Source: a virus (Duplodnaviria; Heunggongvirae; Uroviricota; Caudoviricetes). Taken from it: a DNA stretch of 64,000 nucleotides. Position 1 is the first letter of the stretch; every line of letters begins with the position of its first letter. Shown here in pieces: positions 2,698-21,801 of this stretch. Below the pieces are notes generated by a model. It did not search any database. It worked only from the letters and a program-made list of their open reading frames with translations, and had not been told where the DNA came from. The stretch lies in IMG/VR virus record IMGVR_UViG_2698536484_000026; one strand, given 5' to 3'. A program made the position numbers and the translations under genes.

Positions 2698-2758
2698 AAA
2701 TTGTTCGCCTCTTCTACATTGCGACAATAAAACTCTCAAAATGGGTTAAGGATAAAAA

Positions 2759-3178
2759 ATGTTTAGTGAAATGTTGCTTGAAGATGAACTGGATCGGAAA
2801 ACAACAGAGGCTTTGATTCGTGTAGCGGACGAACATTCCCGGTCGCTTATGAGCGATCGAGAGGCTCGTCTGGCTATTCGTGCCATATTCGAAACTGCGC
2901 AGGGGCTTGTTGGTACACAAGTGGGTGAAGCCATTAACATCGCCATGTCTCAGTTCAGTGAAGGCAGTAAAAAGCCTCTGTTTCCTATGCATTTGATGCT
3001 GGCTGGTGGCACGGTGCTTTATATCTCTGTTTGTCTGGATAGCAACCAAATCAATATTCTCAACACTGTGTCAGGTAAGTGGAAAGATCCGATTGTCTGT
3101 GAAACCAGTGAAGAAACTTTGAAAAAAGCGGCTCAATTTGTACGTAGCGCACTACTTAAGGGCGCTAAGAAGTTGTAA
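2759..3178 (+). CDS. Hypothetical protein
   Basis: ORF with AGGA-type RBS context, same strand as operon. Confidence 0.4.
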   Translation: MFSEMLLEDELDRKTTEALIRVADEHSRSLMSDREARLAIRAIFETAQGLVGTQVGEAINIAMSQFSEGSKKPLFPMHLMLAGGTVLYISVCLDSNQINILNTVSGKWKDPIVCETSEETLKKAAQFVRSALLKGAKKL

Positions 3179-3187
3179 GGAGTAGTA

Positions 3188-3982
3188 ATGGGACAACCGG
3201 TAGACATAACAGGTAAACGTTTTGGAAAGTTGGTTGCACTTAAATATTCCGGTATTTCAAACAAACAAGGGCGACTTTGGGATTGCATCTGCGATTGCGG
3301 CAACACCTGCCTGGTTAGTTACGGGAAGCTAAATCACGGGGCGACAATATCGTGTGGCTGTGTCTACAACGCACATCGCCGTAGCGTAAAGCCTCATGGT
3401 ATGAGTAAAACGCCAATTTATCGTATATGGCTGGGTATGCGGGAACGATGTGAAAAACCAACCCATCACGCCTATAAGTGGTATGGCGGCCGAGGTATCA
3501 AAGTCTGCGAGCGGTGGCAAATATTTGAAAACTTTTATGCTGACATGGGAGAGCGACCAGAGGGGATGTCTCTTGATCGCAAAGATGTGAATGGTGACTA
3601 CGAACCTGAAAATTGCAGATGGGCGACTTTTGAAGAACAGGCCAATAACACGCGTTCAAACTTAATTTTGGAGCATAAGGGGGAAAAGCTGACTCTCTCA
3701 CAATGGGCTAAAAGAGCCGGGATTCAGACATCAACTCTTCACTATCGAATCAAGAAAGGGTGGCCATTAGATCGCGCGCTTAACGCCAGCGTCGACACGT
3801 ATGCCAACCGAGATAGTAAGCGTCTGATCGAGTGTCGCGGCAGAACTCAGCGAATTACCGAATGGGCTAGAGAGGTTGGCTTGACTGCGACCATTATCTC
3901 GCAGCGAATTTTGAGGGGGTGGGATGTTGAAGCTGCCATCTTCACACCGTCCAAACGACCAGTAAAAGGAGATAAAAAGTGA
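3188..3982 (+). CDS. HNH endonuclease (phage homing-endonuclease type)
   Basis: YRIWLGMRERC and NGDYEPENCRWATFEEQANNTR motifs typical of phage HNH endonucleases. Confidence 0.65.
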   Translation: MGQPVDITGKRFGKLVALKYSGISNKQGRLWDCICDCGNTCLVSYGKLNHGATISCGCVYNAHRRSVKPHGMSKTPIYRIWLGMRERCEKPTHHAYKWYGGRGIKVCERWQIFENFYADMGERPEGMSLDRKDVNGDYEPENCRWATFEEQANNTRSNLILEHKGEKLTLSQWAKRAGIQTSTLHYRIKKGWPLDRALNASVDTYANRDSKRLIECRGRTQRITEWAREVGLTATIISQRILRGWDVEAAIFTPSKRPVKGDKK

Positions 3983-4527
3983 TTGCTACAGGGGTGGACA
4001 TCGAATCAACAGGTCTTGATTTCCTCTCAGGCCATAAAATCATTGAAATCGCAATGGTGAAGTACGAAATTGAGACACAGACAATGGTTGATAGTTTTGT
4101 AATGCGGTTCAACCCGCGTCGCAGTATCGATCCGAAAGCGCAAGCGGTACACGGCATCAGTCTTGAAGATTTAGCCGCCGAGCCGTTACTAGCCGATCAC
4201 GCTTCATCTGTCGCTTCGTATCTCTCTTCTTCCGATATTTGGATAGCCCACAACGGCGAAGCGTTCGATATTCCGTTTATTAGGCATGAGCTGAAAAGTT
4301 ACGGTTTTTCGCTTCCAGACATCCCATTGATTGACACTCTATTTTCCCTGTGGGCCACAGAAGACGGTAAACGTCCCCGCCTTGAAGAGTTGGCCTTCTC
4401 TCTTGGCTTTATATACGATCATGCCAAAGCACATAGTGCCTTATATGACACAAACTTAATGATGCAATGCTTCTTTAAGGCACGTAATAAGTACGGATTT
4501 TTTAAATTACCCTCTGAAATTGTGTAA
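3979..4527 (+). CDS. DnaQ-like 3'-5' exonuclease (DEDDh)
   Basis: Exo I DIESTGLD, Exo II IAHNGEAFDIPFI, Exo III HSALYDT. Confidence 0.7.
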   Translation: MIATGVDIESTGLDFLSGHKIIEIAMVKYEIETQTMVDSFVMRFNPRRSIDPKAQAVHGISLEDLAAEPLLADHASSVASYLSSSDIWIAHNGEAFDIPFIRHELKSYGFSLPDIPLIDTLFSLWATEDGKRPRLEELAFSLGFIYDHAKAHSALYDTNLMMQCFFKARNKYGFFKLPSEIV

Positions 4528-4685: not shown

Positions 4686-5495
4686 ATGAGTTCGGTTGAA
4701 AATGTAATGACAAATGATGATCTGGATGAGCTGACAGCCATGTTGCAATCACTTGATGAACCAGTAAAAAAAGCTGCACAGGTTGAAAATACTGATGATA
4801 TTGACGATCTGCTTCTCGGCCTCGATGCTGGCGTAGCCATGAGTTCTGATGATGTTGCCGAAGAACTGTTCAATGAAGAAAAAGCAGGTGATTTCAGCTC
4901 CGCTTTAAATGAGTTGGAGTTAGCTCATGAGCCTATAAACGTAATTAAGGCTGAAAGTGTTGAATCTGCCGAAAACGAGCCAGAACAATTGGGATTTATT
5001 GAGGTTGAAGAGTGTGTTGAGGTTAATGATGAATTAAAAGTTCAACAGTCAAATGATAGCAATACAAATAAAAAAGCTCGTACTGCAAGAGGTCCTCGTT
5101 TTACTTTAAGTGATAAAGATTATTTGTTTTTCAATAAAGCAGGCTTAGAAAAAGATATTTTCTTAGACGCTTACGAAAACGCGCCTGTCAAAGCAAAGGA
5201 TAAGATATTAAACCTTCTTAATTGGTTTAGCGGAGGTCCAGATATTAGTGTTTACACGGTAATTTCCATGAGACACCTTCTCACAGAAAAGAAGGCTACA
5301 AGTAATAGTATTAAGATTGCTTTAATGAGCAATCCAGAAAAACCGTATCCGCTTAACACTGCGTCAACTCAGGCTGGGCAAATGATGGCTGTATTTCCAG
5401 CTACAGGAATTGCTGTTAGAGACGGTGGAAATCTAACATTGAACGAAGAATCACCGATCGTTAAGAAGTTTGTCGCGGAGTACACTATTGGATGA
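4686..5495 (+). CDS. Hypothetical protein with highly acidic N-terminal half
   Basis: About 120 aa D/E-rich N-terminus, basic C-terminus; RBS GGAGA upstream. Confidence 0.45.
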   Translation: MSSVENVMTNDDLDELTAMLQSLDEPVKKAAQVENTDDIDDLLLGLDAGVAMSSDDVAEELFNEEKAGDFSSALNELELAHEPINVIKAESVESAENEPEQLGFIEVEECVEVNDELKVQQSNDSNTNKKARTARGPRFTLSDKDYLFFNKAGLEKDIFLDAYENAPVKAKDKILNLLNWFSGGPDISVYTVISMRHLLTEKKATSNSIKIALMSNPEKPYPLNTASTQAGQMMAVFPATGIAVRDGGNLTLNEESPIVKKFVAEYTIG

Positions 5496-5677: not shown

Positions 5678-6271
5678 ATGATTGCAGCCGAAAAAATCAA
5701 ACAGCGAAAGCGCGACAACTCTCTTCGTGACCTCTGGAGAACACCTGATTGGCTGTTTTCTGCCATTCAACGTTATCTTGGAGTGACATTTGATGTTGAC
5801 GTTGCCTGCAACAAGGACAACGCAAAGCTGCCTAATTTCATAGGCATTGAGCGTGATGCTTTGAAATCTGAATGGGGACAGCCAGGTACAATTGCCTTCC
5901 TCAATCCACCCTACTCCAAAATCTCCCCCTGGATTGATGCTGCTATACGTGAGCAGGCTCGCGGAGTTACAACAGTGATTCTAATTCCTCAATCCCTCGA
6001 TACAAAGTGGTATGAGCGTGCAACAGAGTATGCGAATGAGACGATTATTCTGTCTGGTGGCCGCGTAGCGTTTGTCGAGCCTGACGTCAATTTGGGTCAG
6101 GTAGAAGTAAACATCAACCCCGGTGGCAGTATGCTCGTTGTTTTTCGAGGATTCTGTCAGGACGCTGGGCACTCTATAAGCAAGATCCCTTTGGACGTCA
6201 TGAAAAGTCTGGGAGGGTATGATCCTGCGAATGTGGTCAGGAAAAAAAGACCATCAAAGAAGGCTGCTTAG
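5678..6271 (+). CDS. Phage Dam-like DNA N6-adenine methyltransferase
   Basis: DLWRTPDWLF and LNPPYS motifs. Confidence 0.7.
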   Translation: MIAAEKIKQRKRDNSLRDLWRTPDWLFSAIQRYLGVTFDVDVACNKDNAKLPNFIGIERDALKSEWGQPGTIAFLNPPYSKISPWIDAAIREQARGVTTVILIPQSLDTKWYERATEYANETIILSGGRVAFVEPDVNLGQVEVNINPGGSMLVVFRGFCQDAGHSISKIPLDVMKSLGGYDPANVVRKKRPSKKAA

Positions 6272-6292
6272 TTTGTTCTGGCGTCTGTAATT

Positions 6293-6351
6293 AGCCTGCT
6301 TCTGTATATATAAATAACTACATATTAATTATTAATATACGGAAGCAGGCT
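6293..6351. repeat. Large inverted-repeat element (copy 1 of a conserved element)
   Basis: Perfect 10-bp arms AGCCTGCTTC / GAAGCAGGCT around a 39-nt AT-rich loop containing CTGTATATATAAATAA; repeated at 37413-37461. Confidence 0.5.
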
Positions 6352-6456
6352 GTTTTGTATCAGAGACTCCAGACCTGAACATCACTACAGAATCCACTAG
6401 AACCCTTCCCAGACGCTTTAAAATCGATTTTATGAACCACTTTAAGGAAAACTAAC

Positions 6457-6687
6457 ATGCCATACCCGACCAATGTTGTTGCGCTCGTAGAGAGCGATTT
6501 TCTGGCTAAGGCTCGTGAAATGATGAAAGATCGCGAGCAGGCTTTCAACTTGTACGAATGGGCAATTAAGTGCTTGCATCTTGGGGAGCATCGCGAACTT
6601 GTTGAACAGCTTTTAGGTGAGTTGATCAACGAGGTGTTTGCCTTGAATGTTCAACTACATGGTCGAGAAAATAATCAATCGAAATGA
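6457..6687 (+). CDS. Hypothetical small protein
   Basis: ORF with RBS-like AAGGAAAA upstream. Confidence 0.35.
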   Translation: MPYPTNVVALVESDFLAKAREMMKDREQAFNLYEWAIKCLHLGEHRELVEQLLGELINEVFALNVQLHGRENNQSK

Positions 6688-7271
6688 TAGATAAGTACAA
6701 ACTATTCATAAGATGAATTGTAAGTGCTAAGATCTGATAGTTTCCAGTCGTAGACTGGAGACTCGACCTGATGGGTGGGGGTAAGCGTCACTGGCGTCAG
6801 GTTTAAAAAAGTTCACTACCAGCGTAGAACCGGTGCCGTTTAGGTGTCGGGGAAGGGGGAACCAAAGTGAGCGGAGACAAGGGTCACTTTATGATTGTCG
6901 AGTCTGGGGTGTTTCGAGAGGTTGAATCCAGTACTCCCCTTCATAAAGTGTGGGAAGATCTCGGTTCTGGGGTGCTGTCATCCATAACTTCCCAAGTCTA
7001 AGCTGGCAGTAGACTTAGACCATAACTTTTCAGGTTATGAAACGACCAGGTTGGTGAGGGATTTTTATACTCACCTCCCTGGGAGAGTATTACCTGAAAA
7101 GACAACCTCTCACTTCGTTCGAGGTGAACTTCACTCACTTCGTTCGTTCAGTTCAGGTTTATAAAAACCTGTTCTGGGAAGTAATTTGTTTATTTTAATA
7201 ATTATTAACACGCACGCGTGTGCGCACGCGCGAGGAAAAAAATCGGCGCGGCGCTTGATTCAGGAGTTTAT

Positions 7272-7865
7272 ATGACGACGAAGACACCAGCCCGATCGCA
7301 AGCAAAAACTCGCAAAAAAGCCAAAAACAAAAATTCTCCCCGCACCAATCCCACAACGCCTGTCGTAGAGTTCAATCCCCAGCTTAAAACCGTGAAAATC
7401 TTCAGTGATGGCTCTTGCCTTAAAAATCCGGGTGGCCCGGGCGGTTACGGTATCGTTCTTCAGTATCGTGGAGAGGAACGCGAGTTCTCAGATGGTTTTC
7501 ATAGCACCACCAATAACCGCATGGAGATGATGGGGGCACTTATCGGGCTGGAGCGTTTGAAATATCCATGCAACGTTATTTTACACTCTGATAGCCAGTA
7601 TCTGAAAAACGGCATGACACAGTGGATGAAATGGTGGAAACGCAATGGATGGATGACTTCTGACAAAAAACCGGTAAAGAATGTTGATCTGTGGAAGCGT
7701 CTGGATGAGGCCGCAAGTCGACATAATGTTCGCTGGAAGTGGGTTAAAGGTCACGCCGGGCATCGTGAAAATGAAATATGTGATCGACTCGCGAAGATCG
7801 CAGCTTTTTCAGCAGCAGATATGCCTCACAAGAAAGATATTGGTTTTGTTTATAACAAGCGGTAA
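7272..7865 (+). CDS. rnhA: Ribonuclease H (RNase HI-like) with basic N-terminal extension
   Basis: [52 protein letters not shown] match RNase HI. Confidence 0.75.
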
Positions 7866-18483: not shown

Positions 18484-18510
18484 AGGTGGTGCATTGCACC
18501 ACCTTTTTAT
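18484..18510 (+). terminator. Rho-independent terminator
   Basis: Perfect 9-bp stem aggtggtgc/gcaccacct followed by TTTTAT. Confidence 0.55.
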
Positions 18511-19610
18511 CACACTGCGCGGAATGCGATTTCGCCAGGTATTACTTCACCTTGCCAATACATTTGGGCAGCAACGCGATCTGCGAGGTCACGATAAATA
18601 GCCGTAAATTCGCTATCTGGACGACTAATAACGGTTGGTGTTCCGTTATCCAGATCTTCACGAAGAGAGATATGAAGTGGCATTTGGCCTAACAACTGCG
18701 TGTTGTATTTCTCGGCCAGTTTCTGTGCGCCACCGGTGCCAAAAATTGGCTCGTGATGACCGCAGTTACTGCAAATATGCACACTCATGTTTTCGACGAT
18801 ACCTAGTACCGGCACTTCGACTTTTTCGAACATCACAATGCCTTTCTTCGCATCGATCAGCGCGATGTCTTGCGGCGTAGTTACCACAACCGCACCAGTT
18901 ACAGGAATGTTCTGCGCCAGCGTCAATTGAATATCACCAGTGCCCGGCGGCATATCGAGAACGAGATAGTCCAGATCAGGCCACAGTGTTTCCTGCAACA
19001 TCTGCATCAACGCCTTGCTGGCCATCGGTCCACGCCACACCATTGCATTGTCGTCGGTGACCAGATAACCAATAGAGTTGGTTGCCAGGCCATGAGACAT
19101 GATAGGTGCCATGTGAGTACCGTCCGGTGAGGTTGGACGTTGGTTTTCCGCGCCCAGCATGGTTGGAATTGATGGACCATAGATATCGGCATCCAAAATA
19201 CCAACTTTCGCACCTTCAGCAGCCAAAGCCAGTGCCAAGTTTACTGCTGTGGACGATTTGCCTACACCGCCCTTGCCTGAGCTTACGGCGATAATATTCT
19301 TAACACCATTAATGCCTGGTTGGTTTTTGACGCGCTTAAGCGTGGCAATGTTGTACGACAGCTTCCAGTCAATAGCCTTTGCGCCAGTGATACGGAGCAG
19401 ATCACCACTACATTGCTCTTTCAGGTCTTCAAAAGGCTTATTCCACACGAAAGGCATGATTAGTTCGACATGCAGTGTGTCATCCATCAACGCAACATGG
19501 TGTAACGCTTTAAGCGTAGTCAGGTTGTGTTTCAGGGTTGGGTGCTGAAAATTAGCCAGCGTACCGGCTACCATTGCTCTCAGGGCATCCGGCGATTTGG
19601 ACTCGCTCAT
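18510..19610 (-). CDS. apbC: Iron-sulfur cluster carrier ATPase ApbC/Mrp
   Basis: Near full-length match to enterobacterial Mrp: AVSSGKGGVGKSSTAVNLALALA, MPPGTGD, C-terminal CSNCGH. Confidence 0.9.
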   Translation of the reverse strand: MSESKSPDALRAMVAGTLANFQHPTLKHNLTTLKALHHVALMDDTLHVELIMPFVWNKPFEDLKEQCSGDLLRITGAKAIDWKLSYNIATLKRVKNQPGINGVKNIIAVSSGKGGVGKSSTAVNLALALAAEGAKVGILDADIYGPSIPTMLGAENQRPTSPDGTHMAPIMSHGLATNSIGYLVTDDNAMVWRGPMASKALMQMLQETLWPDLDYLVLDMPPGTGDIQLTLAQNIPVTGAVVVTTPQDIALIDAKKGIVMFEKVEVPVLGIVENMSVHICSNCGHHEPIFGTGGAQKLAEKYNTQLLGQMPLHISLREDLDNGTPTVISRPDSEFTAIYRDLADRVAAQMYWQGEVIPGEIAFRAV

Positions 19611-19767
19611 CCCGTCTCCTTTATTTTAATTTGCGCAATTGTCGCCTTGTAGTGTACTCCAGCTGCGACATTTAATCATTTATGAGAAATGCTGTTATCA
19701 CATGGCAGACATAAGGCCATTTTGTTACTATCAAGCCCCTTTTCACTACAAAGAAGTAATGCCTACT

Positions 19768-21801
19768 ATGACCCAAGTCGCGAAGAAAATTCTGGTGACG
19801 TGCGCGCTGCCGTACGCTAACGGCTCAATCCACCTCGGCCATATGCTGGAGCACATCCAGGCTGATGTCTGGGTTCGTTACCAGCGAATGCGCGGCCACG
19901 AGGTTAATTTCATCTGTGCCGACGATGCCCACGGTACGCCGATCATGCTGAAAGCACAGCAACTTGGTATCACACCGGAGCAGATGATTGGCGAAATGAG
20001 TCAGGAACACCAGACTGATTTCGCAGGCTTTAACATCAGCTATGACAACTATCACTCGACGCACAGCGAAGAGAACCGTCAGTTGTCTGAGCTTATCTAT
20101 ACTCGCCTGAAAGAGAACGGTTTTATTAAAAATCGCACTATCTCTCAGTTGTACGACCCGGAAAAAGGCATGTTCCTGCCGGATCGTTTTGTGAAAGGCA
20201 CCTGCCCGAAATGTAAAGCGCCAGATCAATACGGCGATAACTGTGAAGTTTGCGGCGCGACCTACAGCCCGACTGAACTGATCGAGCCGAAATCGGTGGT
20301 TTCTGGTGCTACCCCGGTAATGCGTGATTCTGAACACTTCTTCTTTGATCTGCCCTCTTTCAGCGAAATGTTGCAGGCATGGACCCGCAGCGGTGCGTTG
20401 CAGGAGCAGGTGGCAAACAAAATGCAGGAGTGGTTTGAATCTGGTCTGCAACAGTGGGATATCTCCCGCGACGCACCTTACTTCGGTTTTGAAATTCCGA
20501 ACGCGCCGGGTAAATATTTCTACGTCTGGCTGGACGCACCGATTGGCTACATGGGTTCCTTCAAGAATCTGTGCGACAAGCGCGGCGACACTACCAGCTT
20601 CGATGAATACTGGAAGAAAGACTCCACCGCCGAGCTGTACCACTTCATCGGTAAAGATATCGTTTACTTCCACAGCCTGTTCTGGCCTGCCATGCTGGAA
20701 GGCAGCAACTTCCGCAAGCCGACCAACCTGTTTGTTCACGGCTATGTGACGGTGAACGGCGCGAAGATGTCCAAGTCTCGCGGCACCTTTATTAAAGCCA
20801 GCACCTGGTTGAATCATTTTGACGCTGACAGCCTGCGTTACTACTACACTGCGAAACTCTCTTCGCGCATTGATGATATCGATCTCAACCTGGAGGATTT
20901 CGTTCAGCGTGTGAATGCCGATATCGTGAACAAAGTGGTTAACCTGGCGTCCCGTAACGCTGGCTTTATCAATAAGCGTTTTGACGGTGTGCTGGCAAGC
21001 GAGCTGGCTGACCCGCAGTTGTACAAAACCTTCACTGATGCCGCTGAAGTGATTGGTGAAGCGTGGGAAAGCCGCGAATTTGGTAAAGCTATCCGTGAAA
21101 TCATGGCACTGGCTGACCTGGCTAACCGCTATGTCGACGAGCAGGCTCCTTGGGTAGTCGCAAAACAGGAAGGTCGCGATGCTGACCTGCAGGCGATTTG
21201 CTCAATGGGCATCAACCTGTTCCGCGTGCTGATGACTTACCTGAAACCGGTACTGCCGAAACTGACAGAACGTGCGGAAGCATTCCTGAATACGGAACTG
21301 ACCTGGGATGGCATCCAGCAACCGCTGCTGGGCCATAAAGTGAATCCGTTCAAAGCACTGTATAACCGTATCGACATGAAACAGGTGGAAGCACTGGTGG
21401 AAGCGTCTAAAGAAGAAGTGAAAGCTACTGCCGCGCCAGTTACTGGCCCGCTGGCAGACGACCCGATTCAGGAAACCATCACCTTTGACGACTTTGCCAA
21501 AGTTGACCTGCGCGTGGCACTGATCGAAAACGCAGAGTTTGTTGAAGGTTCTGACAAACTGCTGCGCCTGACGCTGGATCTCGGCGGTGAAAAACGCAAT
21601 GTCTTCTCAGGCATCCGTTCTGCTTATCCAGACCCACAGGCACTGATTGGTCGTCACACCATTATGGTGGCTAACCTGGCTCCGCGTAAGATGCGCTTCG
21701 GCATCTCCGAAGGTATGGTGATGGCTGCTGGCCCCGGCGGGAAAGATATCTTCCTGTTAAGCCCGGATGCTGGTGCTAAACCTGGCCACCAGGTTAAGTA
21801 A
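19768..21801 (+). CDS. metG: Methionine--tRNA ligase
   Basis: [26 protein letters not shown] (HIGH), KMSKS, CPKC...C zinc knuckles, C-terminal tRNA-binding domain; 677 aa from ATG 19768. Confidence 0.95.

Follow-up and report, generated by a model that had tools for sequence, protein, structure and literature searches.

A probable large structured non-coding RNA gene next to the RNase HI gene of SSU5/pHCM2-type phage-plasmids

Positions 6739 to approximately 7182–7255 on the + strand of the viral sequence analysed here (64,000 nucleotides, referred to as the window) very probably constitute a stand-alone gene encoding a large, highly structured non-coding RNA, about 440–515 nt in length, that is specific to SSU5/pHCM2-type phage-plasmids. 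An earlier note on this DNA had reported a hairpin-rich non-coding gap 5' of an RNase H gene. Such a gap is indeed present at 6688–7271 (584 bp), between the stop codon of a 76-aa open reading frame and the ATG of rnhA. The note had listed separate hairpins, and these were all recovered, but this description was too modest in that they belong to a single RNA of about 450 nt. The region is one RNA unit, with at least 12 helices plus a probable long-range helix, rather than a collection of scattered hairpins.

BLAST searches with positions 6300–7300 and 6688–7272 identified the window as part of an SSU5/pHCM2-type phage-plasmid. It is closest to phage-plasmids from E. coli, Cyrano and PhiR41_1 among them (97–99% identity), and Cyrano, which E. 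coli LF82 carries, shares 97% identity with the window. The 76-aa open reading frame (6457–6687, + strand) is the syntenic upstream neighbour of the RNA. It belongs to phrog_5343, a family of unknown function, and is regarded here as context, not as a demonstrated part of the RNA system. The AlphaFold model of its product is a small three-helix protein (pLDDT 80), for which Foldseek returned no significant match in the PDB (best E = 6.4) and which resembled no known RNA-binding fold in structure comparisons. On the 3' side, rnhA (7272–7865, + strand, with its ATG at 7272; Pfam RNase_H, E = 1e-44) encodes an RNase HI that carries a basic extension, about 40 aa long, at its N-terminus. The genes located 5' of the locus include thyA, dam and genes for a kinase-like ATPase, an HNH endonuclease and a DnaQ-like exonuclease, which places the locus in a DNA-metabolism and early region.

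Two open reading frames are found inside the region, at 6867–7001 and 7051–7164. The first of these corresponds to CYRAN_81 of Cyrano, which is labelled in public records as a hypothetical 44-aa “moron” protein. The internal reading frames contain frameshifts or stop codons in KpST13, SalConcord, L037, L057 and L097, and copies from the JZ38 clade have lost the start codon. Since both frames are interrupted in several lineages, the region is non-coding, and we rejected the possibility of hidden small proteins because the frames are not conserved among relatives. CYRAN_81 thus marks an interval (window 6867–7001) that lies inside the RNA. In published RNA-seq data for E. coli LF82 carrying Cyrano, grown overnight in LB, this interval received 117 normalised reads (PMC9928086 S1 Table), as compared to 9.5 for the upstream open reading frame CYRAN_80 and 8.4 for the RNase H gene CYRAN_82 in the same sample (PMC9928086). 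The RNA region therefore exceeded either neighbour gene 12–14 times in LB, and 11- to 40-fold across ten samples, in which the log2 values ranged from 6.8 to 10.35 for CYRAN_81, from 3.1 to 5.8 for CYRAN_80 and from 2.6 to 5.0 for CYRAN_82 (PMC9928086). The abundance of CYRAN_81 relative to both neighbours argues that the region gives rise to an abundant transcript of its own while the element is a plasmid prophage. RNA-seq had been proposed in the earlier note as a check, and a discrete abundant transcript over the region is what the published data contain (PMC9928086); the evidence for expression was already in print, but had been overlooked.

A putative sigma-70 promoter, read from the sequence and the lineage alignments, is located directly upstream of the RNA (6705–6733, + strand). 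It is composed of a −35-like TTCATA (6705–6710), a 17-nt spacer and an extended −10 element TGcTAAGAT (6725–6733), and the pattern GTGnTAnnAT is invariant or nearly so in all lineages (alignments A1 and A2). Our promoter consensus scan used a cut-off of 9 of 12 positions, below which this promoter scores, and it was hence not listed by the scan. We propose that the RNA would be driven by this promoter of its own, acting constitutively through its extended −10 element, and that the transcript would begin at the protective 5' hairpin P1 and stop before rnhA. The 3' end probably lies within the spacer at 7183–7271 (+ strand), which was delimited from the sequence, alignment A1 and the fold, although a sequence scan found no canonical intrinsic terminator before rnhA. 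This spacer starts with an AT-rich stretch (7183–7207). It is followed by an alternating purine-pyrimidine tract (7208–7232), which bears out the alternating tract described in the earlier note; this tract is Z-DNA-prone and its length varies among relatives. Next is a conserved purine run, CGCGAG(G)AAAAA (7227–7242), which is located in the loop of a GC hairpin (7222–7254) and includes GAGGAAAAAAA at 7232–7242. CGCGAG(G)AAA is kept in the alignments of all lineages, and folding showed that the GC hairpin with its A-rich loop recurs in the window, SSU5, a Klebsiella copy and the divergent lineage L097. The ribosome-binding site of rnhA, AGGAG, is located at 7262–7266 (+ strand).

This arrangement raises the question of whether the RNA could be a long cis-acting 5' leader of rnhA and other downstream early genes, serving as an attenuator, a processive antitermination element, or an element for stability or translation. 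The RNA is co-oriented with rnhA and lies immediately 5' of it with no canonical terminator in between, and the GC hairpin, followed by a weak U-rich tail just 5' of the ribosome-binding site, could attenuate. However, abundance falls about 14-fold from the RNA to rnhA under every condition (counts of PMC9928086, taken here without regard to strand). The downstream gene is rnhA in most lineages, but it is a different one in JZ38-type plasmids and in one C. freundii plasmid. Since these two lineages retain the RNA with other genes 3' of it, there is no fixed link between the RNA and RNase H. In addition, 430 nt with 12 helices and 95% conservation are far beyond what is known for bacterial leaders. 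We therefore consider a leader function to be improbable.

The RNA core (6762–7180) is 95.0% identical to that of SSU5, as compared to 77.5% for the upstream open reading frame, 77.3% for rnhA, 75.1% for dam and 57–66% for the other neighbours. This shows that the RNA is the slowest-evolving segment of its neighbourhood. In elements from Salmonella, Klebsiella, Enterobacter, Citrobacter and Cronobacter, BLAST revealed 88–92% identity over the non-coding core (approximately 6762–7266), with the flanking genes being more diverged. The intergenic region was found in 687 PLSDB plasmids, almost all of them non-mobilizable, in 12 phage records and in 232 of the 5426 complete RefSeq genomes of E. coli (about 4%), where it is nearly always located on a plasmid of about 110 kb. 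None of the public records listed from these sources (PLSDB, phage and RefSeq) carries an RNA feature annotation over the region. In the plasmid records that we examined, the RNA-bearing elements were typed as IncFIB, i.e. as having a RepA-type replicon.

Additional copies were gathered through an invariant 23-mer of the RNA (in genomes and IMG/VR), through homologs of the 76-aa neighbour, and with a gapped three-block pattern in metagenomes. These searches for distant homologs recovered the family only in SSU5-type contigs of about 105–112 kb and added only two lineages, L097 and L102. The contigs of all 54 metagenome matches fitted SSU5-type elements of this size and represented no new clade, and the L097 variant of the 23-mer had no match in the IMG/VR scan. 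The lineages are thus the main one (SSU5/E. coli/Klebsiella), L097 (about 82% identity), the JZ38 type (about 68%), L102 (82% to JZ38) and minor variants. One record (L098) was left out because it had been assembled from bisulfite-converted reads and shows T in place of C throughout. A match in Acidobacteria (L012) was judged to be due to chance, as it represents a ribosome-binding site plus start codon on the opposite strand. In three further elements (L099–L101), this slot is occupied by another structured spacer, for which neither Rfam nor our covariance model R1 gave a match, and which is not a detectable homolog. Altogether, the RNA is a new family that is restricted to SSU5/pHCM2-type phage-plasmids of about 110 kb in the Enterobacteriaceae.

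The segment 6740–7200 has a minimum free energy of −170 kcal/mol on the + strand (z = −5.1, with 0 of 100 shuffled sequences being as stable). The − strand gives a close value (z = −4.9), again with no shuffle as stable. Folding energy alone is no proof of function, and it is the comparative evidence that is decisive. RNAalifold predicted 99 pairs from 24 non-redundant copies, 29 of which showed compensatory double changes. We also ran an unbiased scan over every column pair, curated a set of helices from it and counted changes on alignment A4 (22 sequences from 5 lineages). The resulting structure comprises 12 helices with 83 pairs, and 99.7% of the 1817 cells are paired. Double changes were observed in 29 of these 83 pairs, versus 1–4 when the 3' partners were slid by 1–3 columns, and none of 500 shuffles came up to the real alignment in pairing, number of double changes or covariation score. 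The shuffle control ignores relatedness; the slid controls preserve it, and they support the covariation unambiguously. It should be noted that the alignment includes only about five lineages, so that the independent events are far fewer than the 121 compensatory cells, many of which stem from few ancestral events. The structured non-coding RNA suggested by the earlier note is thus upheld, since covariation in homologs, which it had put forward as a check, is strongly positive. The note had regarded the lack of both a transcript and a conserved structure as fatal to its view; a transcript as well as a conserved structure were found.

Covariation cannot separate RNA from single-stranded DNA, and DNA tolerates G-T wobbles. 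The covarying structure, together with the similar z-scores of the two strands, could in principle reflect an element that is structured as single-stranded DNA, for instance a single-strand origin or a single-stranded DNA promoter, instead of an RNA. However, the element is directly preceded by a conserved promoter and gives rise to an abundant transcript, and the elements that carry it are non-mobilizable and are not rolling-circle plasmids. In addition, 192 of the paired cells are G-U, and on the − strand, where these would be C-A mismatches, the pairing would fall to 89.1%. Model R1, which represents the 3' domain, scored 202.5 bits on the + strand and 20.5 bits on the − strand. The G-U cells assign the RNA to the + strand, and this wobble-pair bias agrees with the transcribed strand. 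We regard a single-stranded DNA element as scarcely credible.

All helices of the model are on the + strand. The 5'-terminal hairpin P1 (6739–6763, inverted repeat I7) contains the ccagtcgtagactgg hairpin that had been pointed out in the earlier note. A hairpin folds here in each lineage from at least 10 different sequences, with the stem being kept, and the 25 nt of this region (6737–6761) are only 44% identical to SSU5 versus 95% in the core. This pattern of a variable sequence with a kept stem is typical of a protective 5'-terminal stem-loop. P2 (6766–6802) has 12 pairs, 5 of them with double changes, and 100% of its cells are paired; it bears an invariant GGGUGG(G/A)GG segment. The P3 domain (6812–6871) is closed by a helix (6812–6817 with 6866–6871) in which 3 of the 6 pairs show double changes, and it contains P3a, P3b and the G-rich segment GGGGAAGGGGGAACC. 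P4 (6885–6894 with 6941–6950, inverted repeat I10) is complementary at 10 of 10 positions, includes 4 pairs with double changes and encloses the invariant segment GAGAGGUUG (6916–6924). P5 (6951–6957 with 6988–6994) has 3 pairs with double changes and its internal hairpin P5a (6970–6974 with 6979–6983) has one, both with 100% pairing, and the P5 domain (6951–6994) includes the invariant sequence GAUCUyGrUUCUGGGG.

In the 3' part of the RNA, P6 (6996–7020) corresponds to the hairpin GUCUAAG...CUUAGAC, whose arms had been noticed before in the DNA (GTCTAAG at 6996–7002 and CTTAGAC at 7014–7020). It consists of 10 pairs, 5 of which have double changes, with 100% pairing, and it was the best-supported stem in the unbiased scan. 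It is followed by P7 (CAUAACU with GGUUAUG, 7021–7039, curated helix 10) and by P8 (CCAGG..GGUG with CACC..CCUGG, 7046–7082), in which 2 pairs show double changes and which harbours the previously noted GGTGAG...CTCACC (7054–7059 with 7070–7075). P10 (GAACU with AGUUC, 7126–7154) likewise has 2 pairs with double changes; its stem reads GAGCU with AGCUC in L097, and its loop carries the second copy of CUCACUUCGUUCG. Lastly, P11 (CAGGUUU with AAACCUG, inverted repeat I8) together with the invariant tail (U/A)UCUGGG(A/U)A spans 7154–7182. Compensating changes between lineages in the P11 stem were read off alignment A4 rather than formally counted, and its tail, ending at 7182, is the final block that is conserved across all lineages. 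The strongest helices overall are P6 (6996–7020), P2 (6766–6802), P4 (6885–6950) and P5 (6951–6994).

A candidate long-range helix or pseudoknot connects positions 6917–6924, in the otherwise invariant GAGAGGUUG block, with 7103–7110 (+ strand, inverted repeat I14, 9 of 9 positions complementary). This pairing is compatible with all 22 of the 22 sequences. L097 alone alters either block, and there both blocks change in a compensating manner, from G-C to U-A. We regard this helix as probable from the sequence comparison, with support that is modest because it stems from a single evolutionary event; it also competes with a small local hairpin in each of the two blocks. The 3' strand of the helix is formed by the 5' half of the invariant 23-mer ACAACCUCUCACUuCGUUCGAGG (7102–7124, + strand), which could alternatively fold into a local hairpin with an 11-nt loop. 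The 23-mer occurs once in the window, where no occurrence is expected, and it is identical in all lineages except L097. The direct repeat for which two copies had been claimed was also found; it is 13 nt long, reads CTCACTTCGTTCG and is located at 7109–7121 and 7134–7146. By itself this repeat is not significant in the window (2 occurrences found versus 1.6 expected when 2 mismatches are allowed), and it is kept in relatives as the loops of two neighbouring hairpins. We rejected the 13-mer and the 23-mer as a genome-wide promoter or binding site, since each is unique to the RNA locus in the 64-kb window. Neither a ToxI-like type III antitoxin RNA nor a CRISPR-like array is indicated, as there are only two copies of the 13-mer, 25 nt apart, and no array.

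A search of the whole window against Rfam 15 (4227 models) produced no matches at the gathering thresholds. This set included the models for RNase P, tmRNA, 6S RNA, group I and II introns, GOLLD, ROOL, OLE, HEARO, raiA, RNAI and self-cleaving ribozymes. With permissive filters, positions 6250–7350 yielded chance-level scores only (11–27 bits versus thresholds of 37–101), and ARAGORN found no tRNA or tmRNA. Accordingly, the Rfam/Infernal check that had been recommended returned no match, and the RNA is outside every described family. Our literature searches found no earlier description of it. Its long invariant unpaired blocks, multi-helix fold and probable pseudoknot are typical of ribozymes, and would be in line with a catalytic RNA, either as a new ribozyme or as a degenerate element of group I or II type. 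Considering that there is no Rfam ribozyme or intron match up to E = 10, and that the RNA is intergenic with no exon continuity, we judge this to be very improbable. A group I intron in particular was rejected, because the RNA is intergenic with a promoter-like element of its own, its neighbouring genes vary independently and no Intron_gpI match was obtained up to E = 10.

Close parallels are the orphan large RNAs GOLLD, ROOL, OLE, raiA and HEARO. They resemble the present RNA in being several hundred nt long, in having many covarying helices and invariant unpaired blocks, and in that their function was unknown at the time of discovery; GOLLD and ROOL are, in addition, carried on phages or mobile elements. 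The present RNA does not match their Rfam models. Whereas those RNAs occur mostly in Firmicutes and metagenomic lineages, the present one is confined to the phage-plasmids of Enterobacteriaceae, a single and much narrower group, and it is expressed in lysogeny.

Among the functional options we favour, with a confidence that stays just short of even, an RNA that acts in trans and in which the three-dimensional fold would be the functional entity. Such an RNA could be a subunit or scaffold of a ribonucleoprotein, or a decoy that sequesters a protein. Candidate sites for protein or tertiary contacts would then be the invariant single-stranded blocks and the pair of hairpin loops with similar sequence (UCACUuCGUUC). 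The RNA may act during lysogeny on replication and DNA metabolism, or on host or defence factors. Taken together, two further options appear possible but doubtful to us: either the RNA and the adjacent RNase HI of the phage-plasmid would form a self-contained, RNA-primed origin, as a second replication system next to RepA, or the RNA would be a new ribozyme or RNA-only architecture acting on host or defence factors. In the case of an origin, the hypervariable 5' hairpin would set incompatibility or immunity.

The main rival to the trans-acting reading, which we rank below it and consider unlikely, is a primer and origin similar to RNA II of ColE1. Here, the folded transcript would form a persistent RNA-DNA hybrid in the spacer, RNase HI (that of the phage-plasmid or that of the host) would cut within GAGGAAAAAAA (7232–7242), and the resulting 3' end would prime DNA synthesis from a second origin for lytic or plasmid replication. 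ColE1/pMB1 RNA II likewise has a fold that matters and a length of about 500 nt, and it is transcribed toward a GGAAAAA-type purine run on a plasmid replicon; it is processed by RNase HI, and the present RNA has an RNase HI gene next door. Indeed, the locus is located directly 5' of this gene in a DNA-metabolism module (thyA, exonuclease, dam, rnhA), and about 495 nt separate the putative start from the purine run. RNA II of ColE1 measures about 555 nt. A GGAAAAA run similar to the purine run is present in the ColE1 sequence (L160), and it is at this run that the RNA-DNA switch of ColE1 presumably sits. The sequence GCGCAGAAAAAAAGG belongs to the promoter side of RNA II, not to this junction. 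The RNA is moreover expressed while the element is a plasmid, G-rich runs occur on the RNA-like strand, an AT-rich stretch and the Z-DNA-prone tract lie between the RNA and the conserved purine run (about 55 nt past the core), and its hypervariable 5' hairpin is reminiscent of incompatibility-determining loops. The 23-mer recurs in the linker of the replication-initiator gene of an unrelated GC-rich phage, where it has a GC palindrome and a purine run behind it and adjoins an AT-rich stretch and iteron-like repeats, at the place where lambdoid origins lie; this match may, however, be a coincidence.

Several observations speak against such a primer. The elements already carry an IncFIB RepA replicon, so that a primer RNA would be unneeded for plasmid maintenance. 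There is no homology to RNA II: model R1 finds nothing in ColE1 (L160), and no Rfam RNAI match was obtained. A partner corresponding to RNA I was not found. The consensus scan detected no − strand promoter within 6740–6900, although weak promoters could escape it, and the single − strand promoter site nearby (6746 to 6717) points away from the RNA. No Rop-like protein was found either, and such a role is unsupported for the 76-aa neighbour, whose AlphaFold model has three helices and no Rop match in Foldseek. Furthermore, the RNA persists where rnhA is absent. The GC skew shows no switch at the RNA locus, which is uninformative if replication is unidirectional.

RNA-based origins do exist in plasmid-prophages of mycobacteriophages (PMC7157519). 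In the extrachromosomal prophages of cluster A mycobacteriophages, a transcribed non-coding region is necessary and sufficient for replication (PMC7157519). The likeness consists in a transcribed non-coding region of a phage that lives as a plasmid. The mycobacteriophages have no RepA, whereas SSU5-type elements have RepA; there is no sequence relation between the two, and the sections of PMC7157519 that were consulted report no conserved complex fold.

Phage-plasmids are known to express other RNA genes in lysogeny, namely the c4 RNA of P1, the CB RNA of N15 and the CI RNA of P4. These are 70–100 nt in length and act as antisense RNAs or are processed. The present RNA is five times larger, has a conserved architecture of tertiary type, and no antisense target was identified for it.

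Large intricate non-coding RNAs are rare, and most classes occur in organisms that are hard to manipulate. The present RNA is found in E. coli, Salmonella, Klebsiella, Enterobacter, Citrobacter and Cronobacter, and some of the elements that carry it are clinically relevant and bear resistance genes. Its presence in E. coli, Salmonella and their relatives means that its function can be tested directly by standard genetics. If the RNA were a primer at an origin, the view of the replication and incompatibility of SSU5-type phage-plasmids would change; if it were a trans-acting ribonucleoprotein component or a ribozyme, it would provide a tractable new class of large RNA. In the published samples, CYRAN_81 reached its maximum in bacteria that had spent 6 h inside macrophages (PMC9928086), and a ribozyme or RNA-only entity acting during lysogeny would fit this peak of expression.

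The position held by the structured RNA in the window, between orf76 (a 76-aa ORF) and the RNase HI gene rnhA, is occupied by a different sequence in three metagenome contigs (L099 to L101). These contigs encode an orf76 homolog that is 71% identical to the orf76 of the window, and between this homolog and two RNase H ORFs lies a non-coding region of about 710 nt (2726-3437) that is wholly unlike the RNA. When folded as RNA, this spacer displayed a high stability (z = -6.2). It matched neither an Rfam family nor model R1, the covariance model of the 3' domain of the RNA, and searches of the plasmid and phage collections and of IMG/VR gave no match to it. The spacer may represent a second structured RNA, non-homologous to the first, at the same locus.

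Two copies of the RNA locus itself were atypical. In a contig of Buttiauxella gaviniae (4792-5306), the 3' two-thirds of the RNA were retained with about 95% identity and the 5' third was exchanged for unrelated sequence, the junction probably being a recombination breakpoint within the RNA gene. The other copy, in a Logan contig (SRR8137545), carries T in place of nearly every C. It was rejected as a sequence variant, as it is apparently an assembly of bisulfite-converted reads, in which C is replaced by T. Between the RNA and rnhA, the Z-DNA-prone alternating CA/CG tract (window 7208-7232) varies from about 12 to 26 nt among close relatives in alignment A1, which covers the RNA region and this spacer, and it is truncated in pHCM2. 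The tract behaves like a hypervariable microsatellite.

An exact copy of the invariant 23-mer of the RNA was present at 6200-6400 of L031, an IMG/VR contig of a GC-rich phage; a second such contig, L058, is identical at this site. Here, the 23-mer lies in the linker region of the gene for a 442-aa replication-initiation protein. Repeats of TCAGTGAGC and an AT-rich stretch of AAGTT repeats precede it, and after it come the palindrome ACGTGCGCGCACG and GAAAGGAA. This layout looks like an origin embedded within the initiator gene. The match to the RNA could reflect a shared function or be a coincidence.

In the JZ38-type loci L094 and L095, the RNA is followed, after a few intervening genes, by a gene (4105-4416) for a 103-aa protein with a weak Pfam match to a Tad2-like (anti-Thoeris) family; TerB/TciA-like and DNA methyltransferase genes lie near it. 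This hints that the neighbourhood is in part an anti-defence region.

Elsewhere in the window, a long, near-perfect AT-rich hairpin (6290-6355; arms GCCTGCTTC...GAAGCAGGC around an AT-rich loop) separates dam from orf76. Its Rfam matches were exclusively weak and miRNA-like, and it is probably a terminator or regulatory palindrome. The phage-plasmid also carries two divergently oriented host-type genes (18510-21801), which look like a mrp-metG locus captured from a chromosome. The gene on the - strand (18510-19610) encodes a Mrp/ApbC-like ParA-family ATPase, and that on the + strand (19639-21801) encodes a full-length methionyl-tRNA synthetase (Pfam tRNA-synt_1g, E = 5e-166). The 376-aa thymidylate synthase ORF (35-1165) matches its Pfam model in two stretches with about 55 residues between them, suggesting that ThyA is interrupted by an insertion. 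A free-standing HNH endonuclease gene (phrog_374; 3188-3982) is located among the nucleotide-metabolism genes.
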